Shown here one piece after another: positions 52-55,852 of a stretch of DNA of 64,000 nt. How positions within the stretch are numbered: position 1 is the first letter of the stretch; every line of letters starts with the position of its first letter. The stretch covers positions 11,114-75,113 of the IMG/VR virus record IMGVR_UViG_3300037200_000088; one strand, given 5' to 3'. The notes beneath the pieces were generated by a model. That model had not been told where the DNA came from, did no database searches, and saw only the letters and a program-made list of their open reading frames with translations. The translations under genes and the position numbers were made by a program. The stretch is from a virus.

Positions 52-2169
52 TCAGAAGCTTTCAACAATGATCGCGTACCCGCTCGCGCCAGCGCCACCT
101 GCGCCCGCAGTCCCGCCGTTATCAGCGCAGCCACCTCCGCCACCACCGCCGCCAAAGGTGCCGCCAGCACCGCCTGCACCCGCGGCGGTTAGCGATGAAC
201 CACCTCCGGCACCGCCCGCTCCCGCTAGTTGTGTGTAGGGTTTTGCGCTCGTAAAAGACGCGCCGGCGCTACCAGTAACTCCCGCAGCGCCGCCTGAGGC
301 TTGTGTCACGCCAAACTGCGGAAAACCGCCTGCGCCACCGCTGAATACAGCGTTAATGGCAGATATTCCCCCGCCTGCGCCAGCGCCCGATGCGCCGTTG
401 TTTGGAGTAGACCAATCGGCGTTGCCGCCATTTGGCCCTGCACCACCATTCAGACCGCCCGCGCCGCTACCACCCGAGTTGAAAGATCCGGAATTTGCAG
501 CGTTACCGTTTGCGCCATAACCTCCGGCCACCCCCGCCCACGCGGCAGACCCTCCCGCGCTACTGCTGCCGTTACCCGCAGGCGACGTACCATATGCCCC
601 GCCGCTTCCGCCACCGCCGGAATTTGAGGCAAGCTGACCGCCGGCCCCGCCGCCGCTTCCGTTAGCATAGAGTAAAGTTCCGAAGCTTGTGGTGCCTCCT
701 CCAGCTCCATTGCCTCCGGCTGTGGTAGAACTTGTCGCGGCCGCACCGGCTGAGCCACCGCCGCCAATGGTAACTGTTAGAGATGTGCCGATTGCGGATA
801 TTGCAAATGTCGCTGCATTGGCTCCTCCTCCACCGCCGCCGGAGCCGCCCGAACAGGCGGCTAAGGATGCTTGAAGTGCGCCACCTCCGCCACCGCCTCC
901 ACCACCAACTAAAAATACGTCGACTTTCGCTGCACCGACGGTTGGAGTGTAAGTTGCCGCGCCGCCCGATGTCGTGAGTGTACAGCCACTTGCGCATACG
1001 GTTATGATGTTCGTTTTATGGGACCACGTAATGTTTGCCTGTCCTGTCCCACAAAAAACAGAATTTGGCGAAGCAAATGCGATAAGCTTGTTGAGTGGGC
1101 CGATAGTTGTGCTTAGCGCGGTTAAGTCAATGTCCATCGCGCAAGTTCCACTCCCGGATTGCTGGAACAGCGTATTGTCAACGCTTATATAGGGAGCGCT
1201 TATTCTTATGTTTGCTATTGTCGCAGTGTCGACCGCAACGCCATCAACAACATCAGAGTATCCATTGAGTTGCATATCATACTGTGGATATAAACCGGAT
1301 ACGGCTTGCCAAGTGTGGGTCCCAGGACCAAAGTGGTTATTACCCGTTGCATTATCTATGATGTTAGATATCGACGCGCTGGTAGCTATCAGCCCGGTAA
1401 AATCGCTGTCACTAGCGCCGTTTTCGAGATCGTGTGGGGGCAGATCAGCTAAAACACTGTAGCAAGTATGGCCGGTATCGTTTACGTTTTGAATGAGATT
1501 TCCGGTTCCAAGAGACTCTTCATAGCCTCCACTAGCTGTTCCATTTTGAGTTGCCGTTTGAAACCTAACGTTCGATCCCGTCATGGAAGCGTTTGCTACG
1601 TTCCGATAGACTACATTGTATGACGTAAAACCGCGAGAATAAGCGATGTCGAGATCATGAGCCGCAAGGCAGTAACCGTCTACCCGCAGGTTATTGAGAC
1701 TAATCTGGACAAGTGTGCTGGCAACACCCTCTGTTAGAACCGAAGCGGGCGGCGTCGCACATCCCGGCATGACTCGTATCGTCGCCCCAGCAGAAGCTCC
1801 ATTTATCACAAGCGAAACTGTCGTCGGGAGACTTACCGTGGCGGCGCATACGTTATACGCCCCGCTCGGCGGCGGCGGCAGATACAACGTCCCTCCGCCG
1901 TCCGCAGTCAGTTGCGTGATCGCCGCGTTGATCGCCGCGCTATCATCCCCACCCGTTCCCGCCGATGCGTTGAAGTCCATCGGTGTGCGCGTCCACGCGG
2001 ATCGTGTCGACGCGGAAGCTGCTGCCGAGCCGCCGTTCGCCGTGTACGGAACAGACGCCGACGGACCATTGAAATCCGCGAACGCGGGCGCGATGAACAG
2101 CCAAACAAACGCGAATAGCGCGAACCCGGCGCGCATCCTCGAAGCCGCGCGAGAGAGCAAGCCGCGCAT
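52..2169 (-). CDS. Tailspike/depolymerase-like protein: signal peptide, pectate-lyase-like beta-helix, C-terminal glycine-rich domain
   Basis: FALFAFVWLFIAPAFA|D signal; DFNASAGTGGDDSAAINAAI...GGGTLYLP motif; C-terminal TYTPTVGAAKVDVFLVGGGGGGG...GASGYAIIVESF. Confidence 0.75.
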   Translation of the reverse strand: MRGLLSRAASRMRAGFALFAFVWLFIAPAFADFNGPSASVPYTANGGSAAASASTRSAWTRTPMDFNASAGTGGDDSAAINAAITQLTADGGGTLYLPPPPSGAYNVCAATVSLPTTVSLVINGASAGATIRVMPGCATPPASVLTEGVASTLVQISLNNLRVDGYCLAAHDLDIAYSRGFTSYNVVYRNVANASMTGSNVRFQTATQNGTASGGYEESLGTGNLIQNVNDTGHTCYSVLADLPPHDLENGASDSDFTGLIATSASISNIIDNATGNNHFGPGTHTWQAVSGLYPQYDMQLNGYSDVVDGVAVDTATIANIRISAPYISVDNTLFQQSGSGTCAMDIDLTALSTTIGPLNKLIAFASPNSVFCGTGQANITWSHKTNIITVCASGCTLTTSGGAATYTPTVGAAKVDVFLVGGGGGGGGGALQASLAACSGGSGGGGGGANAATFAISAIGTSLTVTIGGGGSAGAAATSSTTAGGNGAGGGTTSFGTLLYANGSGGGAGGQLASNSGGGGSGGAYGTSPAGNGSSSAGGSAAWAGVAGGYGANGNAANSGSFNSGGSGAGGLNGGAGPNGGNADWSTPNNGASGAGAGGGISAINAVFSGGAGGFPQFGVTQASGGAAGVTGSAGASFTSAKPYTQLAGAGGAGGGSSLTAAGAGGAGGTFGGGGGGGGCADNGGTAGAGGAGASGYAIIVESF

Positions 2170-2822
2170 CAGTTCGCCCCCACGCTAACGGGCGTCGAAG
2201 CCGCCGAGGCAATAGCGTGCACAGCGCCTGTAGGAACCAACGTCCCGCCGTCGGGCCACGACCTATGCCAGAGCGGCGGGAGGGTGATTTCGCCCGCGGC
2301 GCATTGAGTTCCCGTGATCGTTGCCGCCGCGCCGAAGTTGATGCAGACCGTCGCGGAAGGACTCCCGCTGATCACGTCGAGATAGTTGGTGACCGCGTTC
2401 GCCGCGAGGATTGTGACGTCGGAGGTCCCTACCGTCTGCGCCGTATAGGGCGACGCGGACTTCGACGGCGTCAGGCTTTCGACCGAAGCCGCCGCCGCCC
2501 CGACCGCCCCCGACGAAACCACCGCGCTTGCGCCATTCGCCCCAAGCGCCCAAATATGCGAGGTCGTCTGAACCGGCGCCGGCGGATCCCCGAACCGCTG
2601 CACATGGCCGCCGGAATTGTTGGCCGGCTGCGAATCCGCGACCTGATAGATCACGTTGCCACCGACCGCGCCGAGCAGGATCGGGCCGGGGCCAAGGTCG
2701 GTGTAGGTGGTCGAGCTCAGCGAGACGACATTGGTCACCGTCGCCGCGTCGGCGGGGACCGCGGACGCGAGCCATAGGCACGCGATCGTCGCCGCAAACC
2801 ACCGTTTCGACATTTCAAACAT
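2169..2822 (-). CDS. Signal-peptide protein with two small beta-rich (decoration/spike-base-like) domains
   Basis: MSKRWFAATIACLWLASAVPADA|A; stop overlaps the start of the next gene at 2169. Confidence 0.65.
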   Translation of the reverse strand: MFEMSKRWFAATIACLWLASAVPADAATVTNVVSLSSTTYTDLGPGPILLGAVGGNVIYQVADSQPANNSGGHVQRFGDPPAPVQTTSHIWALGANGASAVVSSGAVGAAAASVESLTPSKSASPYTAQTVGTSDVTILAANAVTNYLDVISGSPSATVCINFGAAATITGTQCAAGEITLPPLWHRSWPDGGTLVPTGAVHAIASAASTPVSVGAN

Positions 2823-2836
2823 CTTGTAAGCCTCGC

Positions 2837-5425
2837 TCAGATCCCGCCGTCAGCTGTGTAGTGGGCGCACAACAGATCGCCGATGCCGCTCACCGTCGCG
2901 CCGGCCTGGATCGTAAAGCCGTTGGCGCTGACGCCAGCCGCGGGAACCGAGGCCGTCACGCTGGCGCCGGCCGTCACGTCCCACCAATTGGCGTTGGCGG
3001 CATCCGGATTGAATATCGCGATCGTCGGCGCCTTCAGCATGGGCGTCTCGAACGGGACCGTCAGCGAAGGCTCGCCGTTGGCAATCGGGTTGCCGACACA
3101 CGACGCGCCCCCCGTCGCGCCTGTCGCTGTGAGGGTCCCCGTCGCCGGCGATGTTCCGCCGCCAAATGTATAGGTGAAGGTCGTCGGGCTCGTGACCGTG
3201 ACCGCGTAGGACCCATTGTAGGCGCTCGGCGTCGCGCCCGCGATAGTCAAGGTCTGGCCGTTGGCGATCAGCGCGGTGTTGGCGACCGTCGCCGTCGCCG
3301 TAGTCGAAGACGATGTCAGGCTGCTGATTGAGAGCGATCCGGCGTTTTGAGCCGGCAGCACGCCTTGCGGGAAACTCGACCGATAGAACAGCCGTACGCG
3401 GCCAAGCTCTTCGGCATAGCTGCGCTGCTGCCAGCCGTTGTCCGCCTCCGCCGCCACCAGACGCACAGAGCTATAGTCGAGCGACGAACCGTTCGGCTCC
3501 GAGACGAAGGGCGTCGCGCTCGCCGCCGCATTGGCGTTGCCGCCGATCCACTGCCGATAAGTTGATGTCTGCGAGCCTGTTCCGCTTCCGGTGTCGAACA
3601 CGACCTTGAGCGAAGCCAAGCCAGGCGCAGTGATTGCAAAATTCGCGTTCGGCGCGGTCTGGTTGTAATTGTCGTAGGGAATTCGGAAAGAGAAGGTCTG
3701 AAGCGTTCCCGCTGCGGCTGTGTAAGTGAACGGGATGACATAGTCGGTCGTGGCGTTGATATTCTGGATCGACACGCTCTGGGTGAGCGGCGTCACCGAA
3801 GACTTCATCTGGAACGACAGCACCAAATCGCGCGGCGTCTGATTACCGCCAGACGTCCAGTTCAACTCTTGGGCGAAGGCGCCGGGGATATCTTGAACGA
3901 TGCCATGAAGTTCGCCTGAGGCCGGTGAACCGCTGGTCGAGACAACGGCATGCAGGCTCGACGCGCAAAATCCGAAGTTGTTGGCGACGGTCTCGAAAAA
4001 TTCAGAGCCGGTCGATTGATACGTTCCCCATTGATCCGGACCAAACCCCGCGGAGAACGCCGTGCGGTTTTTTCGCTGGTCGAAGTAGAAGCAAGGATTG
4101 GTGATCAGGTTGCCAGATTGCGGTGTGGTGAAATTGCTGCCGCCGACGATGTTGGTCGCACCCTTCAGCCCGTTAAAATCGTTCGGACCGAGCCCCACGT
4201 TGAGTACATTTCCGACGTCCGAATAGCCGTAGCTGGTGTTGCCTCCGCCGTCGTCATAGACGGTGTTGCCCTCGAGATAGCTGCCGTTGGCGACATTCGA
4301 CGGCTGCCCCGGGACCGAAGCGACAAAGCCAGAGTTGTAATAGTCGGAATGGTTGCAGGTGCCCGCGTCGACGGCGCGGTTCCCGAGCAGCGAGACCTTG
4401 CCGTAAAAGGTAAAACCCGCGCCACACGTCTTGTAGGACGTGTTGCCCGATACGACGACGCCGTTGTAGCCGATCTCGTAGCCGTCCAGCCAAGTGTTGC
4501 TGGCGTCGGCCGATGTCATCGAATTCTCGACCTTGTTGTCCTCGACGGTCACGTTCTTGGTGACAGGGTCCGACCAGCCGACGACCTCGAAGGTAATCCC
4601 GGCGCCATACCCCCAGCCGTTGACTCGGTTGCGGTCGATGTGGTGATTGTCGCCGACGCCGAAGACGCCGACGCCGGTATTGACCAGCCAATTATCGGTG
4701 ACGTCCAAATTCGACGATGGAAAACTCTGGTTGCCGCAGTTGACGCCCTCGTTGAACTGGTTGCTCGGCGCGGTCAGCGAGAAATAATTGCGCGCGATAT
4801 GCGCGCTGGTCATGCCGTAGCACTGGATCAGATAGAGCGCGCCGCCCGTGGTGAGAGAGCCGTTGACAACCGCGCTATCCTCGAAATCGAGAGCGCCGCC
4901 CGGCGAGGCATAGATTCCGCCGGCGTAAACCGAGGCCGTGTTGCCGCCTAGATCGAGCGTGAAATGTTCGAAATGATGCGTCTGCCCGTTGCCGGCGAGG
5001 GTCAGAATAACGCCGTTTGGCGTCTGTCCGGAGGCCACCTTGAGGCCGCCGCCGTGGATGCCTTCGAAACGGAAATTCTGATTGATGGTCGGGAAGTTCG
5101 CCCAGTTGACCAGGCACGTCCCGGGAAAGGTGACCTCGAAGCCGCCGGACGTCAGATTGAGCTGGTTGATCATCGCCGTGACTTTGGCGGTGTCGTTGGT
5201 CGCGCCATCGCAGGCGAGACCAAAATCGAGGCGCGCGTCGAGTTGCGCGCCATCGTGGGTCGCGCGCCGCGCCGGCGACGCCGGGAACAGGCCCGGGCCA
5301 ACGCCGGTGAACGGCACGAGCGGCCCCGAGGGTGCGCCCGTTCCGGCAGGAACAGCAAGCGCCGCGGTAGACAGCGCTCCCCCAAGCGCGAAAGCTAGAT
5401 AGCCGGCGAGAAGTCGCTTGATCAT
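2837..5425 (-). CDS. Tailspike/depolymerase-like protein: signal peptide, beta-helix, C-terminal fibre/carbohydrate-binding-like domain
   Basis: MIKRLLAGYLAFALGGALSTAALA|V; LDFGLACDGATNDTA motif; Asn ladders; VRLVAAE...RSYAEELGRVRLFY resembles the phage fibre 'VQLE..ATPFE.R...EL..CQRYY' motif. Confidence 0.75.
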   Translation of the reverse strand: MIKRLLAGYLAFALGGALSTAALAVPAGTGAPSGPLVPFTGVGPGLFPASPARRATHDGAQLDARLDFGLACDGATNDTAKVTAMINQLNLTSGGFEVTFPGTCLVNWANFPTINQNFRFEGIHGGGLKVASGQTPNGVILTLAGNGQTHHFEHFTLDLGGNTASVYAGGIYASPGGALDFEDSAVVNGSLTTGGALYLIQCYGMTSAHIARNYFSLTAPSNQFNEGVNCGNQSFPSSNLDVTDNWLVNTGVGVFGVGDNHHIDRNRVNGWGYGAGITFEVVGWSDPVTKNVTVEDNKVENSMTSADASNTWLDGYEIGYNGVVVSGNTSYKTCGAGFTFYGKVSLLGNRAVDAGTCNHSDYYNSGFVASVPGQPSNVANGSYLEGNTVYDDGGGNTSYGYSDVGNVLNVGLGPNDFNGLKGATNIVGGSNFTTPQSGNLITNPCFYFDQRKNRTAFSAGFGPDQWGTYQSTGSEFFETVANNFGFCASSLHAVVSTSGSPASGELHGIVQDIPGAFAQELNWTSGGNQTPRDLVLSFQMKSSVTPLTQSVSIQNINATTDYVIPFTYTAAAGTLQTFSFRIPYDNYNQTAPNANFAITAPGLASLKVVFDTGSGTGSQTSTYRQWIGGNANAAASATPFVSEPNGSSLDYSSVRLVAAEADNGWQQRSYAEELGRVRLFYRSSFPQGVLPAQNAGSLSISSLTSSSTTATATVANTALIANGQTLTIAGATPSAYNGSYAVTVTSPTTFTYTFGGGTSPATGTLTATGATGGASCVGNPIANGEPSLTVPFETPMLKAPTIAIFNPDAANANWWDVTAGASVTASVPAAGVSANGFTIQAGATVSGIGDLLCAHYTADGGI

Positions 5426-5435
5426 CGTAGGTCTC

Positions 5436-5789
5436 TCAAACCAGATTGTAGACAGTTGCCGTGGCGGCGTTCGAACCTGGAAAGTTGAACTGCGTGCATT
5501 GGAACGGGTAAGTCTGCCAACCGACTCCCACCGGCAGCGTCAGCGCCGACGAATCTGGAAATGTGAACGTCAGATTGCCAGCAACAGACGCCAGCACGCC
5601 GACCGATCGTTGCGGCTGATAATTCTGCCCTGCTGACATCGCGACCGCGCCAGCAAAAGCCGCGCTTTGCATGTCGGAGGTGACAGGCACAAACGGCCCG
5701 GCGCCGACACCGCTCTGATCGATGAAGGCAACCGGCTTGATGACCGGATCGGCGGTCCGCGCGTTGAGCGTGGTCAGGATTGCGGGCAT
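5436..5789 (-). CDS. Small structural protein resembling the RcGTA head-spike base (Rcc01079/GhsA-like)
   Basis: C-terminal pattern RSVGVLASVAGNLTFTFPDSSALTLPVGVGWQTYPFQC...ATATVYNLV, recalled by eye. Confidence 0.5.
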   Translation of the reverse strand: MPAILTTLNARTADPVIKPVAFIDQSGVGAGPFVPVTSDMQSAAFAGAVAMSAGQNYQPQRSVGVLASVAGNLTFTFPDSSALTLPVGVGWQTYPFQCTQFNFPGSNAATATVYNLV

Positions 5790-5801: not shown

Positions 5802-6059
5802 TCACAGCAGATAGCCGGGCAAGCTCATGTCGAGCGTTAAGGTCACCAGAATCGATCCAGGCAGGCTCATGTCGAGCGTCAGCGTCACGGGGGCAGGATC
5901 TGGCACGCCTTCCGTTAAGCTCGCCAAGGCCGCTGCCTGCGCCGCGCTGGCCGTTGCTGCGGTTGCAGCCGCCGCCGACGCCGCCGCACTCGCCGCGGTC
6001 GCCGCAATGGTCATGGCAAGGCTCGGCACGGCGGAAGGTTGATGGCCGCCTCCGCGCAT
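5802..6059 (-). CDS. Small Ala-rich protein; duplicate of the C-terminus of the upstream gene
   Basis: Ala-rich helix plus two TLTLDMSLPG motifs; similar to the C-terminus of 6071..6628. Confidence 0.65.
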   Translation of the reverse strand: MRGGGHQPSAVPSLAMTIAATAASAAASAAAATAATASAAQAAALASLTEGVPDPAPVTLTLDMSLPGSILVTLTLDMSLPGYLL

Positions 6060-6115
6060 GGCGCAAAATCCTAAAGCAGGGTGTAGCCGGGAACGCTCAT
6101 GTCGAGCGTTAAGGT
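5823..6115. repeat. Three copies of GCTCATGTCGAGCGT (encodes TLDMS on the minus strand)
   Basis: Copies at 5823-5837, 5865-5879 and 6095-6109; copies 1 and 3 share 21 bp. Confidence 0.9.
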
Positions 6116-6628
6116 GATCGGGAATTCGTCATCGTATACTGAGACGAGCGTCGCCACGGCTGCAGCAGCAGCGCCAGCCGAGACCGCCGCCGTTACCGCA
6201 CTGCCCGCCGCTGCCGCGATGGCGCTGGCGACGCTCGGCATGGCAAAGAGCGGTTGTGCCCCAGCCATCCTCCAGGTGTCGTCGGCGCCCGTAGGAGCGC
6301 TCGGCGATCCGCCCACGGCAGCCTCGGTTACGCCGCCGTGGAAGGCGATCGATCCCCAGCCCGCAAGTTCGAAATCGCAGCCCGGCAGGATAAAGCCGAA
6401 ATCGTAAGTCGCGGGCCCTGGCGTCAGCGCCGCCAGGGCCGCCTCGGTCCACCGGAAAGTCACAACCGGCGCAATGCCGCCAGTATAGATCTGGTCCCCG
6501 CTGTCCGAGTCAAGCAAGAGTTGATCGGACCAATTGCGGATTTGCATGCGCCATGTCGCGCTCGCGAGCGAGGGGTAGAGTGTCGCAAAATCCACGACCG
6601 CGAAGCTGACCTGCTGGCGTTGGTTCAA
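6071..6628 (-). CDS. Stand-alone baseplate-anchor (BppU-N-like) domain protein, paralogous to the tailspike N-terminus
   Basis: TYDFGFILPGCDFE...APTGADDT versus TYSAELGFTLPGADYE...APTGADDT in 6656..8545; true start probably upstream of 6628. Confidence 0.65.
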   Translation of the reverse strand: MNQRQQVSFAVVDFATLYPSLASATWRMQIRNWSDQLLLDSDSGDQIYTGGIAPVVTFRWTEAALAALTPGPATYDFGFILPGCDFELAGWGSIAFHGGVTEAAVGGSPSAPTGADDTWRMAGAQPLFAMPSVASAIAAAAGSAVTAAVSAGAAAAAVATLVSVYDDEFPITLTLDMSVPGYTLL

Positions 6629-6655: not shown

Positions 6656-8545
6656 CTAGATGTTGTTGCCGCCGTTGACGACGCCGTTGAGGCTGCCTCC
6701 GGTCAGCAGATATCCACCGCCGCTGTTCAACGAGATGTTATTGACGACTAGACAGTTCCCCCCCAAGCCAGCGGTCTCTACATCATAGAGCGTCGCGTCG
6801 ATCGCTACGCTCTCCGCCCCCGTTCCGTCGAAGACGTTGTTTGTAACGATGCCAGGCAAGAAGAAATCGTTCGAGCTCATAAGAACCAAGCCAGGCGGGC
6901 AAGCCACGCCGCCAGTGCCTCCCGGGGCAGCCGCCGTTGCGGTAAACGTCGTCCCTACCGTGTTGTTTGGCGATCCTAGCGAGGTCCAACTCGTGCTGCC
7001 GGCGGTGATGATGGTGTACCGATCTCCGACGGTGAGATACTGTGGATCGAGGTTGCTGGTAATCACCGTATTTCCTACGAAGCGGATACCCCCGCATCCA
7101 TTGAACTTCGCGGTTCCCAACGAGCAGCCCTGCACTCTCCACTCAACGTTATCCTGATCGGTTGCAGCCATGTCGATAGACCGAACAGATTGACCGATGA
7201 TCAAACTGTCGAGGACAAAAACCCCTTGCGGGTCCTGGTTAACACCAGTCCCGCCGCTCGCATGAAATTGGACTCCGAAACACCCACCGAGCAATGTGCA
7301 CTTCTCAAAATAGATGGCGGTAGGAACGTTTGGCGAAGAACCCGACAAGGAGGTTTTATGCACGACGCAGGCCGATTGACTTCCTAGAACCGCGTCGGCG
7401 GCGGCGCTGAAGTTGATGTAGCAATCGTTCATATCCTGCAAGAACAGGCCAACGAAAGCAAACTTCTGTCCATAGGTTGCTGACGCGGTATACAGCGAGA
7501 CGTTGTCGATGACGCACGACCGAACGCCCGCGCCTGGCGCGCCGGCTATGCCAGTCATTTTGACGTTGATGGCGCCGACTATTGTTCCGACCGCGCTTCC
7601 GATTGAGTCCCCGACAGGGCAATCTATTACGACCTTGAAGTCCCTGAGCAGAAGCGAGCCGCACTGGCCGTCGTAGGAGTTGGCGTCTGCAATGGCGAAA
7701 TTGAGCGTGGCGCTCGCGCTTCCGAGAATGATCTTCGACTGGCCGCCGACGCCGAACATACTGACGGCCTGGTTGATTGCGATCGTTGCCCCGACCTGGG
7801 CTGTGATCATGTACTCGCCCGCCAGCAGGGCCATCTTGCCGCTGTTGATGGCGCCCTGGAGGGGTATGGTGTCGTCGGTCAGGCCTAGGCCGCCGGCTTC
7901 GAACATTTCCGGTGTGACAAAGGCCCCGGAAAACAAGACGCCGCTAGGGCCGACCAACGCAGCGCCGAGAGCGATTGCGCCCGAGCCCTGGAGTACATGC
8001 GGGGTGGGCGAGTAAAGCGCGAGTTGCCCAGCGCTGCCAAACCCTATAGCCGCCGCGACCGCCGCATTGATCGCGGCGGTGACTGTCGCATCCAACGTGA
8101 CCGTCGCCGCTGGCGTCGGGTTGGCGCCGCCGATAACCGTGTCATCAGCGCCCGTCGGCGCCGCTGGTGTCCCGGCCGCTGGCGGGACAACGACGCCGGC
8201 CAAGAAGGCGATCGTCCCGCCGTCGACTCGCTCGTAATCCGCGCCCGGCAACGTGAAGCCAAGTTCGGCTGAATATGTCAGGGTCGCCACGCCGATCAGC
8301 AGCGAGGCTGGACATCTGACGACAACCTGCGCCGGAGGCCCCGCAAGGAAGGCCACCGTCGCATTCGCATTTTGCGGCGAGCCGCCGGTGCGAAAATCCA
8401 GCGTTATGACCGGCGACCCCGCCATCGGACGGATCTGGAAAATCCAGACCGCCTCAGCGAGGTTCGAATAAATGCTGGCGAAGTTGGAGACGTTGTAGGT
8501 GAACTGGAAACGCTCGTTGAGATAAGCGGTGAGGCTTAATGTCAT
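6656..8545 (-). CDS. Tailspike: anchor domain plus beta-helix depolymerase-like domain
   Basis: FVTPEMFEAGGLGLTDDTIPLQGAINSGK motif; beta-helix-like C-terminus; ATGA overlap with the upstream gene. Confidence 0.75.
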   Translation of the reverse strand: MTLSLTAYLNERFQFTYNVSNFASIYSNLAEAVWIFQIRPMAGSPVITLDFRTGGSPQNANATVAFLAGPPAQVVVRCPASLLIGVATLTYSAELGFTLPGADYERVDGGTIAFLAGVVVPPAAGTPAAPTGADDTVIGGANPTPAATVTLDATVTAAINAAVAAAIGFGSAGQLALYSPTPHVLQGSGAIALGAALVGPSGVLFSGAFVTPEMFEAGGLGLTDDTIPLQGAINSGKMALLAGEYMITAQVGATIAINQAVSMFGVGGQSKIILGSASATLNFAIADANSYDGQCGSLLLRDFKVVIDCPVGDSIGSAVGTIVGAINVKMTGIAGAPGAGVRSCVIDNVSLYTASATYGQKFAFVGLFLQDMNDCYINFSAAADAVLGSQSACVVHKTSLSGSSPNVPTAIYFEKCTLLGGCFGVQFHASGGTGVNQDPQGVFVLDSLIIGQSVRSIDMAATDQDNVEWRVQGCSLGTAKFNGCGGIRFVGNTVITSNLDPQYLTVGDRYTIITAGSTSWTSLGSPNNTVGTTFTATAAAPGGTGGVACPPGLVLMSSNDFFLPGIVTNNVFDGTGAESVAIDATLYDVETAGLGGNCLVVNNISLNSGGGYLLTGGSLNGVVNGGNNI

Positions 8546-9129
8546 GGCGCTGGCCACGCTGCGGCGTCAATCGCGGCTTCTGTCGTGATCGTCGCGGCGG
8601 TAATCGCGGCCATGACTGTTTCGAGCGCGGCGAAGGTCGACTGAACCCAATCTGCGATATTGTCGGCGGTCGTTAGGAAATCAGCAGCGGAGATCGTCAC
8701 GAAGGCGCCAGTCGAAGAGAATTGCCAAAGCACGCTGGTCGGCGCGCCGGATTGTTGTAGGCGCAGCGCGTTGCCGGTGATCAACGCCAGCGAAGTCGGG
8801 TCGGTGGCGAATAGGTAGGAGGTTCCCTCGATCGTTACGTTGTGGCCGCCGGTCGCTAACGTCCATTGCTTCGCGTTGGCGTAGGCTAGGAGTTGCGCGG
8901 TCGTTGGAGCCGGAAGCGTCGGGGCTGCGGGCGCGATCAGCGCGCCGCCGGAGAGCGTCCATCCAATCCCGGCGCCGGGCTGGATCATGAAAGACGACCC
9001 GGTCGGCGGCGACATCGTTGCACCGCCGGGCAGCGAAAGAACGCCGCCGGATAGCGTCGCCGCGGCGTCGACCAGCAGCGTGTTGACGACGACGCCGCCC
9101 ACGACTTCTTGAACAATTTGCGTAACCAT
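8542..9129 (-). CDS. Tail fibre assembly-like protein (DUF4376-like)
   Basis: LLAYANAKQWTLATGG...WVQSTFA...AAIDAAAWP; directly follows the fibre gene. Confidence 0.7.
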   Translation of the reverse strand: MVTQIVQEVVGGVVVNTLLVDAAATLSGGVLSLPGGATMSPPTGSSFMIQPGAGIGWTLSGGALIAPAAPTLPAPTTAQLLAYANAKQWTLATGGHNVTIEGTSYLFATDPTSLALITGNALRLQQSGAPTSVLWQFSSTGAFVTISAADFLTTADNIADWVQSTFAALETVMAAITAATITTEAAIDAAAWPAP

Positions 9130-9140
9130 CCGCGCGCCCC

Positions 9141-10652
9141 TCAGAATTTGATAATGACGAAGCCATTGGCGCCGGTCCCGCCGTTGGCCGTGCCGCTGGC
9201 GCAGGCGCCCCCGTTTGACCCGCCGCCTGGAAACAGACCGGCCGCACCGACAGGACCGATGACCCCCCAATTTGGCGCGCCACCCCCGAATGGTGAGCCG
9301 CCGCCCGCGCCGTTGACAGGGAGCGCGCCAGATCCCGTGCCGGTGGCTGAGCCGATACCGCCCTGCTCGCCGTTCAACTCGATTTGAGCACCGAAGCCGC
9401 TGCCACCGACGCCCGGAACGTTGATCGCGTTAGGCGACCCGCCGCCGCCGCCGGTCGCATAAACCGGCGTGGTTGACCCAAAGGTGGTCGTGCCGCCAGC
9501 GCTGCCGTAATTGGCGCCGATGCCCCCGGTGCCGCCGGCTCCCACCGTGACGGTGATCACCTGCCCGGGCGTGACCCCTACGTCGTACGCGTGCGCGTAA
9601 CCACCGCCGCCGCCGCCGCTCGATGATGCGTTGGTCCCGGAGGAGCCGCCACCAGCGCCGCCAGCGCCCCAGAGTTCAACCTCTTTCAGGTTGTAGAGTC
9701 CCGCCGGAACCGTCCATGTGGTTGAAGAAAGAAACGGTATTACCTGCGATATGGCTTGGCTGTCGGTGTAGACGCCTAGCAACTGAGCCGACGACCCGGT
9801 GTTGGAAAAGAGAGTGTTCGCGCTGGCCTGAATGTCGTTTTTCTGGCAAGGCGTCCCATCCGCCCGGGTAATGGTCAACTGGCCGAGCGATCCGATCTGG
9901 ATCGTGGGCGTCGTTGTCTGGTTATTGTGAGCGACGTCCACCAAGTAGAGTTGGCCCTGCTTGTAGGCCGTGATCGCCGGCGCAAGATTGGTGACCTCGA
10001 TCGCGTCGGCCGCGCCACTGTCCGCGCCGAAATACGGGCCGACGCCATTGACGCTGGCGCTGGTGCTGTAGGCGTCGATCAGTTGGACGCCCGAACCTGT
10101 ATCGGCGAACAGCGTATCCGCGCCGGCCTTGATGTCGTGCGGCTGGCAAGGCGTCCCGTCCGCCCTGGTGATCGTTTGCACGCCGATCGAATTGATCTCG
10201 AATGTCGGCGTCGTGGTCAGATTGTCGTGCGCGACGTTGATCAGGAAAAGCTGGCCGGCGACATAACCGGTAATCGAGGGCGAGAGATCGGTAACGTGGA
10301 TAGCGTCCGCCGATCCGCTGTCGATCCCGTAGTAGGGGCCGAGGAACCCGGTAGGCGGCGCGGGAAGATTGGCGGCGATGACGGCTTCGAGCGCCGCCAG
10401 AAACTCCGCCTCAAGCGTCGCAACATTGCCATCGTCGTTGACGTTGGCCGACTGATGATCGGCGGTAAATTGCGCAATCATGGTCGCGACGACGCTCGCT
10501 TGGCGCATCGCATTGTTGAAGGTCACCGGGTCGGCAATGCCGATTTGCGCACCGAGTTGGCGGATCGTCGCCGCAGCATAAGCCGCTGGTGTCGCAGGTA
10601 TATTCGCGCCAACCCCAGTCGCCCAGGTGACAAATTCGTTGGTGGGAGGCAT
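9141..10652 (-). CDS. Tail fibre protein with an internal domain duplication and a Gly-rich C-terminal domain
   Basis: NNAMRQASVVATMIAQF...DDGNVATL baseplate-attachment N-terminus; TWTVPAG..VELWGAGGAGG domain. Confidence 0.85.
   Translation of the reverse strand: MPPTNEFVTWATGVGANIPATPAAYAAATIRQLGAQIGIADPVTFNNAMRQASVVATMIAQFTADHQSANVNDDGNVATLEAEFLAALEAVIAANLPAPPTGFLGPYYGIDSGSADAIHVTDLSPSITGYVAGQLFLINVAHDNLTTTPTFEINSIGVQTITRADGTPCQPHDIKAGADTLFADTGSGVQLIDAYSTSASVNGVGPYFGADSGAADAIEVTNLAPAITAYKQGQLYLVDVAHNNQTTTPTIQIGSLGQLTITRADGTPCQKNDIQASANTLFSNTGSSAQLLGVYTDSQAISQVIPFLSSTTWTVPAGLYNLKEVELWGAGGAGGGSSGTNASSSGGGGGGYAHAYDVGVTPGQVITVTVGAGGTGGIGANYGSAGGTTTFGSTTPVYATGGGGGSPNAINVPGVGGSGFGAQIELNGEQGGIGSATGTGSGALPVNGAGGGSPFGGGAPNWGVIGPVGAAGLFPGGGSNGGACASGTANGGTGANGFVIIKF
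9768..10340 (-). repeat. Tandem ~300-bp domain duplication inside the tail fibre gene
   Basis: GPYYGIDSGSADAI...TITRADGTPCQ and GPYFGADSGAADAI...TITRADGTPCQ. Confidence 0.9.
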
Positions 10653-10664
10653 TCTGAAGTCCCT

Positions 10665-11474
10665 TTAGGAGACGATGTTCTGAGCGACGAAGTCGGGCGG
10701 TTCGCCCCAAGAGCCGACTTCCCAGCCGGAGACGAATTCGTTCATCAGGCCCCAACCAAACAAAGGCGTGTTGTCGACCGTGACGACCTTGATATCGAGA
10801 TAGACGCCAGCGGGACCGATCGGGATCAGCTTTTGGGCAAGGATTTCGAGATCAACGACGCTCGGTATCTGCCCTGAGACGCCTATTTCCCAGTGCATCC
10901 CGATCGTCTGCAGCGTTGGCTGCGTCTGACCCAAGAACTCGCCCGGCGCGCGCCAGTAGGCCTGCCCCCAGCCATTGGCGGGAACGCCCCACGAGAACGG
11001 CTGGATGACACCGACGGCGCCGGAGACATCCTCAACGAACACATGGGTTGCCGGATTGATGAAGTACGCGTTGAGCGCGGCTTGCGCCGAGTCGGTTTGA
11101 CCGTCGCCGTAGTTGGCGATGATCTTGGCGTAGAGCAGCCGGCGGTAGGTGTCGTCGTCGAGGCTGTCGATGTAGGCCGCGTTGATATTGGGGCCTTGCC
11201 AGTAGCCTTGCGACCAGCCGCGAAGCGGATCGCTCCAAGTGAACCAGGGCTGCGCTACCGGGATCGTGACCTTGCGCGATTGCCCGACCCATTGACCGAC
11301 TACATCGAGCTGTGCACCGACCGCGACGTTGAGATCGAACGCCTGCGAGAGATTTGCGAAAAAGCTCTGGACATCGGCGAACGAAGCGACAGAGGCGGCG
11401 ATCGTCGCATTGAAGTTAGGCTTGTTGGCATAGAGCGGCGGGATGAGCGCCAGATAGTCGTTGGTGGCGCGCAT
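10665..11474 (-). CDS. Baseplate wedge protein (DUF2612)
   Basis: AFDLNVAVGAQLDVVGQWVG...LDDDTYRRLLYAKIIAN. Confidence 0.85.
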   Translation of the reverse strand: MRATNDYLALIPPLYANKPNFNATIAASVASFADVQSFFANLSQAFDLNVAVGAQLDVVGQWVGQSRKVTIPVAQPWFTWSDPLRGWSQGYWQGPNINAAYIDSLDDDTYRRLLYAKIIANYGDGQTDSAQAALNAYFINPATHVFVEDVSGAVGVIQPFSWGVPANGWGQAYWRAPGEFLGQTQPTLQTIGMHWEIGVSGQIPSVVDLEILAQKLIPIGPAGVYLDIKVVTVDNTPLFGWGLMNEFVSGWEVGSWGEPPDFVAQNIVS

Positions 11475-11523
11475 CAGGTTTTGCCTCTATAGGCTCTCAA
11501 AGAAGTTCTGGAGGATCGAAGAG

Positions 11524-11745
11524 ATGACCGTTGACGAGCTGCGCACCGCACTTGAGGGCGTGCCGGGCGAGCTGGAAGTGCAAATGTATTGCGATCAAAC
11601 GCTTGCGGAGGTGGACGTCGCGCACGTCGCTCGTCTGGACAGAAACTCGCGCATGAAACTTGGCGAGCCGTTATCCCCGAGGGGGACACCCTTCTTTGCG
11701 GTCGGCGATAAATATCCTGATAAATCCAAGCCTACGGATTGCTGA
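11524..11745 (+). CDS. Small hypothetical protein, antisense inside the baseplate operon
   Basis: GGAGGA RBS upstream of ATG 11524; MTVDELRTALEGVPGELEV; fills the gap between baseplate J and DUF2612. Confidence 0.65.
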   Translation: MTVDELRTALEGVPGELEVQMYCDQTLAEVDVAHVARLDRNSRMKLGEPLSPRGTPFFAVGDKYPDKSKPTDC

Positions 11746-12931
11746 CGATGACCGAGACGTTCCCCGGCACGCACAGCGGCGCTTCGTTGAAGTTGATCAT
11801 TACGTCGGCTTGCGTGGGCGTAAGACCATCGCGCGCGACGGCGATCGATTGGATTTCGAACGTCTGCGATTGCAAGCCGCCGAACAGATAGGCCGCAGCG
11901 TAGGCGCGGGTCCATTGGATGCCGTTGCCGATCCCGATATTGTTGGTCCAATTGGCAAGCGAATTCTGGATCAGCGCCTCGACATCGGTCGTGAATCCGT
12001 TCAGCGATTTGATCGTCACGGCATAGGTGATCAGCGGTTCGAGCACCGGGAAATAGTTGACCGTCGAGGGAATGCCATAAGCGTCGGTGAGGATAACCGA
12101 CGCCGAGCCATAGGTGCCGCAGCCGCCCTTTTTCGCCTTGATGGTCGCCGCGATCGAAGCCGCAACGCCTCCGTCGACGACGACCGCGATGCAATGGCCG
12201 GGAACGCCGTTCGCGTCGGGCAGGTTGCCCTCGTTCTCGTAGCAGCGCACGCGCGCAACGCCGGGCAGCGCCTCGATCGCGCCCTGTACGCCTTGCAGGA
12301 TCGCGGTAGAGGAATTCATGGTCGAAACCGACTGGCGCTGGCGTAGCGTCGCGTCGTCCTCAACCGGCAACCCTGCAGTGGCGTCGGAGATGTTGATCGC
12401 CGACTGCCAGCCTGGTTGGCTGTTCGATATTTCGTTGATCGTACCTTGCGGCGCCAGGATCGCCCCCGGCGTCGTGCAAATCGCGGTGACGACGATCTGC
12501 CCCGAGTAGGGGATCGTGACATTCGCCGGCAGCGCCCATGTGAAGCCGCCCTCATCCTCGAGCAGGCCGTTGATGATCGGCGAGAACGCCTGACCGACGA
12601 TCAGGATTTGCGCGTTCGAGTAGGAGGGGATCAGGCGTGCAAGACCGTTGATCTTGACGACGCTGGAAAGCCCGACGCCTTGCGCTGTAGTTGGTGAGAA
12701 CGCGTTGTACGCTTGGACCGCCATTGCGTTGGTGTCGTCGATCGCGGAAGCAATCAACCCGACCCATTCTCCGTCTTGCGTCGAGGAATCTAGACTTACG
12801 TCGCTGCCGTAAATCGACTGAAACTGCGCCACGACCCATGCCAGAACGGTCGCCAGCGTCGGCCGGCTGATCCCCGTAGGCGTGATCGTGCAAACCGGCG
12901 TCGTGCCGGCCTGGATTGACGACGTCGCCAT
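11732..12931 (-). CDS. Baseplate J / gp47-like protein
   Basis: ITPTGISRP...QSIYGSD...STQDGEW; EDDATLRQRQ; YENEG..DANGVPGHCI. Confidence 0.9.
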   Translation of the reverse strand: MATSSIQAGTTPVCTITPTGISRPTLATVLAWVVAQFQSIYGSDVSLDSSTQDGEWVGLIASAIDDTNAMAVQAYNAFSPTTAQGVGLSSVVKINGLARLIPSYSNAQILIVGQAFSPIINGLLEDEGGFTWALPANVTIPYSGQIVVTAICTTPGAILAPQGTINEISNSQPGWQSAINISDATAGLPVEDDATLRQRQSVSTMNSSTAILQGVQGAIEALPGVARVRCYENEGNLPDANGVPGHCIAVVVDGGVAASIAATIKAKKGGCGTYGSASVILTDAYGIPSTVNYFPVLEPLITYAVTIKSLNGFTTDVEALIQNSLANWTNNIGIGNGIQWTRAYAAAYLFGGLQSQTFEIQSIAVARDGLTPTQADVMINFNEAPLCVPGNVSVIVSNP

Positions 12932-41632: not shown

Positions 41633-41875
41633 TTAGGTGACCGGTGGACGCGGGCCAGGTCCGGGGCCGAACCATCCACCGCCCCAAGTCCCGAGATAGC
41701 CGCCGAAGAAGCGCCACGCCATCAGAAGGATTATCAGGACGGCGAGGATCATCAGGCATTTCATGACCATCGCCGGGATGACAATCCCGAGTTCCCCCAT
41801 GACCCACACGCAGAGGAAGAACAGCAGGGCGATTACGACCAGCGTAATTAGGAATCGAAACAGGGCCTCGACCAT
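41633..41875 (-). CDS. Two-TM small membrane protein (holin-like candidate)
   Basis: AGGAG RBS; MVEALFRFLITLVVIALLFFLCVW..; first gene after the late leader. Confidence 0.65.
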   Translation of the reverse strand: MVEALFRFLITLVVIALLFFLCVWVMGELGIVIPAMVMKCLMILAVLIILLMAWRFFGGYLGTWGGGWFGPGPGPRPPVT

Positions 41876-42307
41876 TTTTCGTCTCCTAGAGGCTCCGAGC
41901 GGGGCGACGCGCAACACGGCGGCGGGATGAAACCGCCAGCGCACTCTCCGAAGCGGCGGCGGCAACTTGCGTCACATCATTTTGCTCAACCGAGGGATAT
42001 GATGGGACGGGCCTCTCAGCTTCAAGGTGTGGCGCTGCCCGTTCGGGCGAATTGTCGCGCTTTCAGCCGTCGACAGACGCGCCTAGCGCGCTGGTTTCTA
42101 GATGTCGCCTCGCCGATCGAACACCAGAAAACGATCAGGTTGCGCGCCCCGCCTGCCGGCCGGGATGTACGAGCCGGATTATCGCAACAGCGCGTCCAGC
42201 ATATCAATTTCATGCCACAAATCAGGGGGCATTGTCGCCCCCCTTTTTGGCGCGCTGCGAGCGCCAGCGACAGGTTTCCCTTGTAAGTGTCGCTACGAAA
42301 TGAAAAA

Positions 42308-53307: not shown

Positions 53308-53549
53308 TCGGCCGCCTGGACGTGCGGCGGTTCGGACTCGTCAGGCTGATGCTCGGAGTCTTTCAGGCCGAAGAAATCGTTGGCATCAACAAGACCCTCC
53401 GTGGCGCCGAAGATACGGGCCATCGTCTTCCGATCAGGGATGCGCTCGCCAAGGCAGTATCGGCGCACGGCCTGCGGACTGACGCCGATCCGCGGGCCGA
53501 AGTCGACCGCCTTGATATTCCGCTCAGCGAGGAAATCGGAAAGCTTCAT
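53304..53549 (-). CDS. cro: Cro-like repressor
   Basis: MKLSDFL...IGVSPQAVRRYCLGERIP..I..ATEGLVDANDF; divergent from cI. Confidence 0.88.
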   Translation of the reverse strand: MKLSDFLAERNIKAVDFGPRIGVSPQAVRRYCLGERIPDRKTMARIFGATEGLVDANDFFGLKDSEHQPDESEPPHVQAAE

Positions 53550-53558
53550 GCCGGATAG

Positions 53559-53628
53559 AAAAACACCACAACGGTGTTTTTGTCAAGCGGAGAAAAACAC
53601 CAAACTGGATTATCGCCAAAATGGTGTT
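53559..53628. promoter_or_regulatory. OR operator region (three AACACC-N5-GGTGTT-type sites) with the PR -35 TTGACA
   Basis: Perfect site 53562-53578; degenerate sites 53596-53612 and 53612-53628; TTGACA on the minus strand at 53586-53581. Confidence 0.85.
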
Positions 53629-53646
53629 TTCGTTCGACAATTTGGC

Positions 53647-54231
53647 ATGGATGCGGAAAGCGAAAATGGCGTGCTCCAAGAGGCGCGTAAAAGCGCGGGG
53701 ATGACGCGCAACAAACTGGCGTCGCTCGCCAACACCTCTGCGCAGCAGATCGAAAAGCTGGAAAAAGGTATGCGCGAGATGACGCGCGCATGGGCCGAGA
53801 GGCTCGCTCCGCACCTTGGCGTCTCGGCCCAATACTTGGTGTTTGCCGATAGTCGAAAGGTTCACGTCGTCGGGTTCGCCGCCGCGGGAAGCGATACTCT
53901 GATCTTTGCCGACGCGCAGGGGCCTTTCGACGAAGTCGACGCGCCGGCCTGGGCCACCGAACGCACCGTCGCCGTGCAGATCCGCGGAACGTCCCTCGGG
54001 CGCCCGTTCAACAATTGGCTCGCGTTTTACAACGACCGACACGATCCGCCCGACGAAAGCCTGATCGGGGAACTGTGCATCTGTGGCCTGGCCGACGGCC
54101 GCGTGATGATCAAGACCCTGCAAAAGGGCAGCTCGAAGGGACGGTATCATCTCGAATCGCTGACTGAGCCGACGATTCCGGATCAACACGTCGAGTGGGC
54201 TGCAATCGTCGAGGAGATGCGGAGAAGATAA
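53647..54231 (+). CDS. cI: CI repressor (HTH plus S24 peptidase-like domain)
   Basis: RKSAGMTRNKLASLANTSAQQIEKLEKG; VVGFAAAG; RGTS; VMIK. Confidence 0.9.
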   Translation: MDAESENGVLQEARKSAGMTRNKLASLANTSAQQIEKLEKGMREMTRAWAERLAPHLGVSAQYLVFADSRKVHVVGFAAAGSDTLIFADAQGPFDEVDAPAWATERTVAVQIRGTSLGRPFNNWLAFYNDRHDPPDESLIGELCICGLADGRVMIKTLQKGSSKGRYHLESLTEPTIPDQHVEWAAIVEEMRRR

Positions 54232-54622: not shown

Positions 54623-54874
54623 GATCGGAGCTTTACCGAGATAGTGTGCAGCGTCGGCGTTAGTCGCGCCCAAAGGCGCGCCGCCTCGACGCTCACGAAC
54701 CGGGGCCTGCCGGACTTAGCATCCCTCCGGTAGCCCTTCGTCGAGCACCAATCCCTCTAAGATAGGAATCTAACTAAACCCGCGCGCGTTCTTTAGCGCT
54801 TATCGCGTGCGCGCGTGGGCGGGGGAGGATTTCCTCCGGCCGAGCTTTGTCAATTCTGCGTCGCGGAAAAAATA

Positions 54875-54930
54875 AACACCGACTTGGTGTTTTCTCGCTT
54901 GACTGAACACCGTTTCGGTGTTTTCATAGC
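54875..54930 (+). promoter_or_regulatory. OL operators and PL promoter
   Basis: Perfect AACACC-N5-GGTGTT at 54875-54891 and 54906-54922, flanking TTGACT at 54899-54904. Confidence 0.85.
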
Positions 54931-54994
54931 ATCCGTTGAACCCCCCGATCCCCGCCATCCAAAGGCAGCGGGACGGAGGCGACCGGAGGCGAAG

Positions 54995-55852
54995 ATGGCG
55001 AAGCGGGTGCCCAAGGCAAAACCAACGGGAGACGTGCCGGCCGCCGAGGTTGTCGCGGTCGAGGAAGCCGCTGAGCCCGCTGTTCAATCGATCAAGGGCC
55101 TCAATCAGGATTTCGCCTGTCGCGGGTTTCAATTCGAGATCGGCAAGAGCTACGAGGTCACAGGACGCATCGCGGCTTGTGAGAACGGCTTTCACGCCTG
55201 CCCGACCGAAGAGCATCCTTTCTCCGTTTTCGAATACTACCCGCCGTCGTCGCGCTTCGCGCTCGTGACGCAGGCCGGTAAGTCCGATCGTCAGGGGAAC
55301 AAACTCGCATCGGCGAAAATCACAATCGACGCCGAAATCTCTCTCGGCGATCTCGCGAAACGCGCCATTGATTGGGTCTTCAAACAAGCGAAGTGGTCGG
55401 AAGGCCCGGTTGCTACGAAGCCTAATGAAGGCGTGACGGCGAGCGGCTATCGGGGCGCGGCCACGGCGAGCGGCGATCGGGGCGCGGCCACGGCGAGCGG
55501 CTATCGGGGCGCGGCCACGGCGAGCGGCGATCGGGGCGCGGCCACGGCGAGCGGCTATCGGGGCGCGGCCACGGCGAGCGGCGATCGGGGCGCGGCCACG
55601 GCGAGCGGCAATCAGGGCGCGGCCACGGCGAGCGGCAATCAGGGCGCGGCCACGGCGAGCGGCGATCAGGGCGCGGCCACGGCGAGCGGCTACGAATGTA
55701 AGGCTCGCGGCAAAGCAGGCAATGCGCTCTTCGCTGTTGAGCGGAACGACGATTACGAAATCATCAGCGTTGCTTGCGGGATCGTCGGCCGCGACGAGAT
55801 CGAAGCAGACGTTTGGTATCTGGCGCGCGCTGGAAAGCTCGTCCGCGCCTAA
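54995..55852 (+). CDS. DUF7666-like phage protein with a nonapeptide repeat (beta-solenoid)
   Basis: KGLNQDFACRGFQFEIGKSY..ACENGFHAC; GAATASGxx repeats. Confidence 0.8.
   Translation: MAKRVPKAKPTGDVPAAEVVAVEEAAEPAVQSIKGLNQDFACRGFQFEIGKSYEVTGRIAACENGFHACPTEEHPFSVFEYYPPSSRFALVTQAGKSDRQGNKLASAKITIDAEISLGDLAKRAIDWVFKQAKWSEGPVATKPNEGVTASGYRGAATASGDRGAATASGYRGAATASGDRGAATASGYRGAATASGDRGAATASGNQGAATASGNQGAATASGDQGAATASGYECKARGKAGNALFAVERNDDYEIISVACGIVGRDEIEADVWYLARAGKLVRA
55427..55696 (+). repeat. 27-bp coding tandem repeat, 10 units
   Basis: GGCGCGGCCACGGCGAGCGGC plus a variable hexamer (TATCGG/GATCGG/AATCAG/GATCAG). Confidence 0.95.

Follow-up and report, generated by a model that had tools for sequence, protein, structure and literature searches.

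Tailspike-like proteins with putative export signals encoded by a peat-soil phage

Phage tailspike depolymerases, such as CBA120 TSP2, the Klebsiella K2 tailspike, KP32gp38, and the Sf6 tailspike, have a right-handed parallel beta-helix core that begins with a DF..G..DD.A N-cap, carry mosaic distal modules, and are encoded in the tail-fibre gene block. These proteins have an N-terminal particle-binding domain or docking peptide and no export signal. Tailspike-like glycan enzymes with export signals are known from bacteria, including Pantoea WceF, which has a Tat signal (PMC7949094), the Vibrio RbmB lyase, the Azotobacter AlgE epimerases, and a periplasmic depolymerase (Liston et al. 2018, cited in PMC7949094). 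These enzymes act on the cell's own exopolysaccharide, and are encoded by chromosomal genes in polysaccharide loci that serve the cell. The Bdellovibrio MAT fibres, which are cell-owned adhesins of a predatory bacterium, have a signal peptide followed at once by a conserved beta-rich N-domain and then by phage-fibre-like modules with variable tips (PMC10769870). Phages also encode proteins that use the host's Sec system and act on the envelope, some of them beside receptor-binding genes: RI of T4 (PMC6116005), the signal-peptide genes of Porphyromonas phages (PMC10367356), and, in all likelihood, T5 Llp, Cor, P1 Sim, and T4 Sp. However, those are small proteins unrelated to fibres or spikes, none is a large beta-helix tailspike homologue, and the Porphyromonas study names no tail parts.

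Here we analyzed a 64,000-nt window (positions 11,114 to 75,113 of IMG/VR record IMGVR_UViG_3300037200_000088) of a complete 75-kb peat-soil phage genome. Between its tail-fibre genes and its lysis enzyme, this phage encodes three proteins built from tail-spike parts that begin with bacterial secretion signals and carry paired cysteines, suggesting that they very probably work outside the cytoplasm in which the virus is built. To our knowledge this is not described for tailed phages, and full-text literature searches revealed no paper that describes export signals on phage tailspikes.

Coding sequences and signal peptides of ORFs A, B, and C

A first-pass annotation had proposed that three consecutive genes start with Sec-type signal peptides and that the late operon ends in an exported arm. 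Our analysis confirmed the observation and supported the inference, although translocation and cleavage are inferred from sequence. All three ORFs lie on the minus strand: ORF A (2837..5425, 862 aa), ORF B (2169..2822, 217 aa), and ORF C (52..2169, 705 aa). ORF A starts with MIKRLLAGYLAFALGGALSTAALA before a mature VP; its signal peptide (codons 1-24, 5354..5425) consists of MIKR, a hydrophobic core, and ALA. ORF B starts with MFEMSKRWFAATIACLWLASAVPADA before AT (codons 1-26, 2745..2822), and ORF C with MRGLLSRAASRMRAGFALFAFVWLFIAPAFA before DF (codons 1-31, 2077..2169). Each has a basic n-region (+2, +1 net, and +4, respectively), an uncharged hydrophobic core of 12-20 residues, and Ala at -3 and -1; B and C have a proline at -4. 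None has a twin arginine, and a Tat reading was rejected; a lipoprotein reading of ORF B (Cys15 in TIAC) was rejected because the box is not canonical and an ADA site followed by A lies downstream. The region is identical in contigs of a second peat study.

To determine whether the signals lie at the true N-termini, we examined the start codons. ORF A is preceded by GAGAGA 6 nt upstream of its ATG and ORF B by GAGG 8 nt upstream, while ORF C starts in a TGATG stop/start overlap with B. The genes are tightly packed, with a 10-nt gap between A and the upstream gene, a 14-nt gap between A and B, and a 1-nt overlap between B and C. Alternative starts at M4 of B and M12 of C keep the signal. The first starts that would lose it are codon 37 in A, codon 29 in B, and codon 64 in C, and their use would open gaps of 85-190 nt. 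The 81 pooled signal-peptide codons have a GC3 of 0.75, like coding sequence here. Operon packing and conservation make starts downstream of the hydrophobic segments unlikely. A crude tripartite rule, used in place of a trained predictor, flagged 5 of 108 rough gene calls of the whole phage; two of the five are A and B, and the other three are small doubtful ORFs. ORF C was absent from that gene list but was flagged when the rule was applied separately. Three adjacent positives are therefore unlikely by chance.

Next, we explored whether relatives keep the signal. The results showed that its grammar is conserved while its sequence drifts. In the C family, 7 of 8 relatives (36-50% identical) begin with different but canonical signals. 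Both relatives of ORF A, P0002 (59% identity) and P0003 (39%), have one at the same place: P0003 has MLKRALLALALVAAAILPAYA before Q, and P0002 a segment ending in IVAAASVLLAADLARA before Q. For ORF B, 163 cluster representatives were found, and 114 of 149 (about 77%) passed the crude rule, compared with 14 of 99 internal windows. As 35% of N-termini shuffled with the same composition also pass this rule, we rely only on the internal-window control; several of the negatives are evident signals that the rule missed. Interestingly, two B-family relatives, P0099 and P0144, carry twin-arginine signals instead.

Predicted folds, cysteine pairs, and genomic context

ORF A comprises, in order, the signal peptide, a short linker, a beta-helix (residues ~60-360, 4346..5248), a middle domain, a small fibre-type insert matching phrog_9998 (residues 696-768), and a C-terminal domain. 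ORF C comprises the signal peptide, a beta-helix (~60-360, 1090..1992), and a glycine-rich C-terminal domain (400-615, 325..972) that hits PF21722 (Gly_rich_2) at 27.5 bits against a cut-off of 24.3, as well as phrog_863. In AF2 models of both proteins, the predicted right-handed parallel beta-helix cores have pLDDT of mostly 70-90, whereas the models are poor outside these cores. Foldseek matched the cores to tailspikes and to exported bacterial glycan enzymes with E values of 1e-6 to 1e-4. Matches of ORF A include CBA120 TSP2, the K2 tailspike, KP32gp38, RbmB, and AlgE A-modules; RbmB and AlgE are the top fold matches for ORF C, and the adhesin PfbA was also among the matches. Similarity to the tailspikes is at the fold level only (9-13% identity), while the C-family profile matches the AlgE6 N-cap by sequence at 5e-6. 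No Pfam, PHROG, or NCBIfam enzyme model was hit at threshold; conserved Asp, Glu, Asn, and His columns are present but were not mapped to a known active site. Profile searches against PDB sequences gave nothing for A or B.

The short segment shared by A and C, noted in the first-pass annotation, is real, but it is the N-cap that precedes the DF..G..DD.A beta-helix start in all relatives rather than a separate docking module. Only about 10-15 linker residues separate the cleavage site from this N-cap, which leaves no virion-binding domain, and no relative within the searched length range (387-1234 aa) carries an N-terminal virion domain in place of the signal. Pairwise BLAST found no significant similarity between A and C, A and the spike, or C and the fibre beyond low-complexity glycine runs.

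ORF B consists of the signal peptide, an N-domain (27-111, 2490..2744), and a C-domain (112-217) with Cys160/Cys174. The two domains mostly occur apart among its relatives: 70 have the N-domain, 83 the C-domain, and 3 both. Long B-family members show the order signal, N-domain, then beta-helix or discoidin domain, which resembles the order in the MAT fibres, although no homology with these was tested or seen and in this phage the N-domain protein is a separate small gene. The nearest Atlas look-alike clusters of ORF B are 85-100% viral.

Cysteines covary in pairs in the three families, as expected for proteins that fold in an oxidising compartment. ORF A has five pairs (72/104, 202/230, 334/357, 445/487, and 776/853), of which four are invariant and 202/230 is lost jointly in P0003. 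In the C family, C108/C137 are invariant in 9 of 9 and C167/C236 are lost jointly in 2 of 9. The B pair is present in both positions in 49, absent in both in 32, and discordant in 2. Furthermore, signal and cysteine pair occur together in the B family (69/1 against 8/5, p = 2.4e-4). Cysteine content alone is not diagnostic, because the signal-less spike of this phage also has 12 Cys; a homologue search with this spike returned a single relative, too few for a covariation control.

The upstream genes, all on the minus strand, provide an internal contrast. The spike at 6656..8557 has no signal peptide. Its first ~147 aa are 35% identical (over 136 aa, E 2e-12) to a 185-aa protein at 6071..6628 that copies this N-terminal module but has no enzyme part, and 69% identical to the N-terminus of its relative P0169, which also lacks a signal. 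That this module is a virion anchor, as the first-pass annotation assumed, is inferred. The tail fibre at 9141..10652 also lacks a signal and carries the same glycine-rich domain family as ORF C (PF21722, 44.5 bits, 2.4e-11; phrog_863 and phrog_11303). Farther upstream (10665..12931) lie the baseplate genes DUF2612/phrog_587 (10665-11474) and Baseplate_J/phrog_6 (11732-12931). Directly upstream of ORF A, a 117-aa ORF without a signal peptide (5436..5789) resembles the C-terminal part of the B-family member P0111 (blastp E 3e-9).

The three genes are followed after 61 nt by a phrog_181 endolysin, and the sequence supports their transcription with the late tail and lysis genes. Promoter-like and terminator-like sites occur at or below the shuffle expectation, and the GC3 of A and B equals that of their neighbours. 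By contrast, the distal ~600 codons of ORF C (52..1870) have a GC3 of about 0.48, against 0.75 in its first 100 codons and 0.7-0.85 in neighbouring genes, suggesting that this part is probably a module swapped in behind a resident signal and N-cap. Consistent with evolution like that of a receptor-binding protein, the A-type C-terminal half is joined to C-type beta-helices in P0005 and P0006. Relatives sit at the same place in other phage contigs: loci L009 and L011 have the order baseplate J, DUF2612, glycine-rich fibre, DUF4376, and then a signal-bearing fibre/beta-helix gene, and L010 and L004 also place a signal-bearing relative at the end of the tail genes. Among cultured phages, tblastn found no match for A, B, or C, and P0010, one of the relatives, gave only short fibre-repeat matches to Pelagibacter phages. 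Scans of viral contigs gave nothing for query A1 or for ORF C and one short locus for B, scans of genome contigs found nothing, and metagenome contigs gave only contigs of 1.5-3.9 kb.

Possible functions of the three proteins

The first-pass annotation had offered escape depolymerases, spikes that fold in the periplasm, and lysogen surface proteins, which our data cannot separate. We tentatively favour the first: the three genes may form an exported accessory arm of the host-recognition gene set, encoding late-made, disulfide-bonded glycan-binding or depolymerase proteins that act on the host envelope. In this reading, which falls short of even odds, the proteins would cross the inner membrane unfolded, be cleaved, and fold with disulfides in the periplasm, or outside the cell if the host has a single membrane; a spanin and lipobox scan revealed no convincing spanin. 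There they would bind or cut the host's own surface glycans (O-antigen, capsule, or EPS) late in infection. The most likely payoff is receptor destruction and loosening of the matrix, so that progeny escape and are not lost on debris, and the enzymes would persist after lysis as free depolymerases. The genome also holds a GT2/GtrB-like glycosyltransferase, in keeping with a surface-glycan theme. ORF B, inferred to be translationally coupled to C, is probably an exported partner or handle of the large proteins. However, enzyme activity is not shown, and as a protein released at lysis does not strictly need export, the selective reason is conjecture.

An unlikely but not excluded alternative is that A and C are true virion parts that mature outside the cytoplasm, with B as an exported assembly helper, and dock when the holin and endolysin open the cell. 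Candidate adaptors already on the particle would be the enzyme-less copies of the spike's N-terminal module (6071-6628 and 5802-6059). The proteins are built only from fibre and spike modules and lie inside the tail-fibre block, relatives such as P0009-P0011 have long fibre-type shafts after the signal, and in L010 the signal-bearing fibre may be the only fibre on the stretch seen. On the other hand, A and C have no docking domain after cleavage, the phage already has a signal-less fibre and an anchored spike, and our literature searches revealed no tailed phage that adds parts after export.

Somewhat less likely still, the proteins may serve the lysogen or the infected cell at its surface or in the periplasm, in superinfection exclusion by masking or trimming the receptor, or as cell-owned fibres comparable to the MAT proteins. 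Exported phage proteins that appear to block reinfection, namely T5 Llp, Cor, P1 Sim, and T4 Sp, would offer a precedent. A CI-like repressor (phrog_4) is present, the related contigs G001 and G003 have integrases, G003 is classed as a provirus, and the GtrB-like glycosyltransferase would also fit. However, the genes have no flanking promoter-like or terminator-like sites above chance and are coupled to late genes, A and B have the phage's own codon usage, no integrase or serine recombinase was found in this complete genome, and no membrane or lipid anchor is evident in the mature proteins.

It is improbable that the proteins are secreted pectate-lyase-like auxiliary enzymes that degrade plant or microbial polymers for the host's nutrition. 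The phage comes from peat, peat viruses carry glycoside hydrolases, one with proven activity (PMC6786970), and the beta-helix fold is shared with pectinases. However, the distal modules are of fibre type, the genes sit inside the tail-fibre block in several phage lineages, their mosaic evolution is typical of receptor-binding proteins, and no CAZyme-type Pfam or NCBIfam model was matched at threshold. Finally, it is least likely that the proteins are not exported and that the hydrophobic N-termini are mis-called starts, uncleaved membrane anchors, or oligomerisation helices, because, although AF2 draws the ORF C N-terminus as a low-confidence helix and P0005 is called from the Met at the beta-helix start, this reading conflicts with the operon packing, the tripartite grammar kept in well over a hundred diverged relatives, the Tat replacements, and the cysteine pairs that track the signal.

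Host-recognition proteins of tailed phages are thought to be made and assembled in the cytoplasm. This window shows a conserved class of tailspike and fibre homologues that carry the host's export signals and a disulfide signature, and the ordinary fibre and spike beside them make the question of what is exported, and why, directly testable. Signal-bearing 'tail fibre' genes in viromes should be neither assumed to be virion components nor discarded as host contamination. If the proteins are free exported depolymerases, phages would be adding a receptor-destroying or matrix-loosening step to lysis, and such genes would be a source of naturally stable, disulfide-bonded glycan enzymes. If they are virion parts, a step of tail assembly would take place outside the cytoplasm.

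Genomic setting of ORFs A, B and C

The sequence analyzed covers bases 11114-75113 of a complete 75,113-bp virus record with a 127-bp direct terminal repeat. The phage comes from peat, and identical pieces of the region were found in contigs of a second peat study. On the minus strand, the late operon runs in the order baseplate J (11732-12931), DUF2612 (10665-11474), a glycine-rich tail fibre (9141-10652), a DUF4376 fibre-associated protein (within 8542-9270), a spike (6656-8557), an enzyme-less copy of the N-terminal module of the spike (6071-6628), two small ORFs, and then ORF A (2837-5425), ORF B (2169-2822) and ORF C (52-2169). The 117-aa ORF just upstream of ORF A (5436-5789, minus strand) has no signal peptide and resembles the C-terminal part of P0111, a signal-bearing member of the ORF B family (blastp 3e-9). 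Just beyond the left edge of the window, 61 nt after ORF C, we identified a phrog_181 endolysin without a signal or SAR segment (minus strand, 10234-11103 of L003, the locus extending past this edge). Therefore, the three genes lie between the fibre genes and the lysis enzyme. No spanin pair was recognized anywhere, and a 110-aa protein with three membrane segments at 41633-41965 is a possible holin far from the endolysin. L003 also contains, on the minus strand, a GT2 glycosyltransferase (3919-4647) that weakly resembles GtrB O-antigen conversion enzymes (Pfam 2e-13, phrog_841 2e-5), as well as a 314-aa protein with no family match downstream of the endolysin (9011-9955). In the early region, far from the tail module, a 345-aa protein (54815-55852, plus strand) matches phrog_4433 (9e-72) and, more weakly, collagen-like tail-fibre families.

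Signal peptides and cysteine pairs in the sequence

The first-pass annotation reported that the three proteins start with Sec-type signal peptides, and the N-termini are as described there. Each has a basic n-region, an uncharged hydrophobic core, and Ala at -3 and -1 (ALA|V in ORF A, ADA|A in ORF B and AFA|D in ORF C). ORFs A and B are preceded by SD-like sites, and ORF C starts in a TGATG overlap with ORF B. The nearby alternative starts in ORFs B and C keep the signal, whereas starts that would remove it lie 29-64 codons in and would open gaps of 85-190 nt where the real intergenic distances are 10, 14 and -1 nt. The pooled signal codons have a GC3 of 0.75, like coding sequence in this phage. 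By a crude rule, only 5 of 108 rough gene calls of the phage look signal-like; two of them are ORFs A and B, and the rest are small doubtful ORFs.

Three independent lines of evidence support the signals. First, relatives keep the grammar of the signal. The beta-helix half of ORF C has eight relatives at 36-50% identity, seven of which begin with different but canonical signals (for example ...SVAFA|A, ...TWAYA|Q and ...GPVFA|Q), while the eighth is called from the Met at the beta-helix start. Both relatives of ORF A, the only two found, have a signal. ORF B belongs to a family with 163 cluster representatives, and 114 of the 149 listed relatives passed our rule, against 14 of 99 internal windows; several of the negatives are plain signals that the rule missed. 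Interestingly, two members of this family carry twin-arginine (Tat-type) signals in place of Sec signals (P0099 with RRDFL and P0144 with TRRSLL), suggesting that export is conserved even where the pathway changes. However, about 15 members start directly at the mature N-domain, showing that a signal-less subfamily also exists. In another contig (L005:1135-3246, plus strand), a relative of ORF B with its own signal peptide lies in frame with a terminase large subunit, with no stop codon between them.

Second, the cysteines behave as disulfide pairs. ORF A has exactly ten Cys in five pairs; four pairs are invariant, and the fifth (202/230) is present in two sequences and lost jointly in the third. 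In ORF C, 108/137 are invariant in 9 of 9 sequences, and 167/236 are lost together in the same two sequences. In the C-domain of ORF B, the pair 160/174 is concordant in 81 of 83 representatives. Third, signal and cysteine pair go together in the ORF B family, with counts of 69 and 1 with a signal, against 8 and 5 without (Fisher p = 2.4e-4). As these sequences are related to one another, the p-value is only indicative. The clean signal-less members have no cysteine at all.

Predicted folds, modules and position in other phages

Furthermore, the folds of ORFs A and C were evaluated using AF2 models. Only the cores of the models (residues ~60-360) are confident, the models being poor outside them, and both predicted cores are right-handed parallel beta-helices. 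Their best solved matches are phage tailspike depolymerases (CBA120 TSP2, the K2 tailspike, KP32gp38 and Sf6), and they also match exported bacterial glycan enzymes and adhesins (V. cholerae RbmB lyase, AlgE epimerase A-modules and PfbA). The ORF C family profile also matches the AlgE6 N-cap by sequence (5e-6). The short similar segment that the first-pass annotation noted in both large proteins is this N-cap, which precedes the DF..G..DD.A start in all relatives. After cleavage, only a short linker would precede the beta-helix, so there is no particle-binding domain. In contrast, the first 147 residues of the spike at 6656-8557 form a signal-less module, which is repeated in the ORF at 6071-6628 and conserved at 69% in P0169, a relative of the spike.

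ORF C ends in a PF21722 glycine-rich domain, the family found at the end of the signal-less fibre. ORF A carries an insert of about 70 residues, a fibre-type small domain matching phrog_9998 (residues 696-768; 3122-3340, minus strand), which is absent from both of its close relatives, P0002 and P0003. The modules are shuffled as in receptor-binding proteins: the A-type C-terminal half is joined to C-type beta-helices in P0005 and P0006. In ORF C, GC3 falls from 0.75 in codons 1-100 to about 0.48 (0.34-0.62) for the rest of the gene (52-1870, minus strand), whereas neighbouring genes have 0.7-0.85, which fits a recent module swap from a lower-GC donor behind a resident signal peptide and N-cap. 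ORF B has two small domains that mostly occur apart in other proteins. Its N-domain is fused, after a signal, to a beta-helix in P0134 and to a discoidin (F5/8 type C) carbohydrate-binding domain in P0099. The nearest Atlas look-alike clusters of ORF B are 85-100% viral.

Relatives that could be placed lie in phage contigs at the same position. Two of these loci, L009 and L011, have baseplate J (phrog_6), phrog_587, a glycine-rich fibre and phrog_10508, followed by a signal-bearing fibre/beta-helix gene, and two others, L010 and L004, also put a signal-bearing relative at the end of the tail genes. The records holding L009 (G001) and L011 (G003) have integrases, and G003 is classed as a provirus. 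The present phage has a CI-like repressor (53380-54231, plus strand; phrog_4, 2e-11), but no tyrosine or serine recombinase was found in its complete genome, which leaves its lifestyle unclear.

Related systems and possible role of the three proteins

Exported tailspike-like enzymes are known in bacteria, namely WceF, which has a Tat signal (PMC7949094), RbmB and AlgE. Exported fibre-like adhesins are known in Bdellovibrio, in which a signal peptide is followed by a conserved beta-rich domain (PMC10769870). Phages are known to export small envelope-acting proteins and some endolysins (PMC6116005), and signal peptides on phage genes of unknown function were noted in Porphyromonas phages, without mention of tail parts (PMC10367356). 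In five full-text searches, we found no paper describing export signals on tailspike or fibre homologues in a phage late operon. To this background, the present region adds an internal contrast between signal-less and signal-bearing spikes in one phage, the cysteine covariation, the link between signal and cysteine pair, and the evidence for a module swap in ORF C.

Promoter-like and terminator-like sites around ORFs A-C do not exceed chance, and ORFs A and B use the codons of the phage. Therefore, the genes look like late genes, not morons. We tentatively favour, at somewhat less than even confidence, an exported accessory arm, although only the sequence-level steps are supported directly, and location, activity and benefit are inferred. 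An alternative that we consider unlikely is that the proteins are spikes matured in the periplasm and docked at lysis, perhaps onto the anchor-only copies of the spike module. Somewhat more doubtful still is that they are surface proteins of the lysogen or infected cell, such as exclusion factors. Carbon-degrading auxiliary enzymes of the type found in peat (compare PMC6786970) appear improbable, and the absence of any export is about as improbable.

In the reading we favour, the proteins cross by Sec, are cleaved, and fold with disulfides outside the cytoplasm, where they bind or cut the surface glycan of the host late in infection. This would destroy the receptor, free the progeny, and leave stable free enzymes after lysis.
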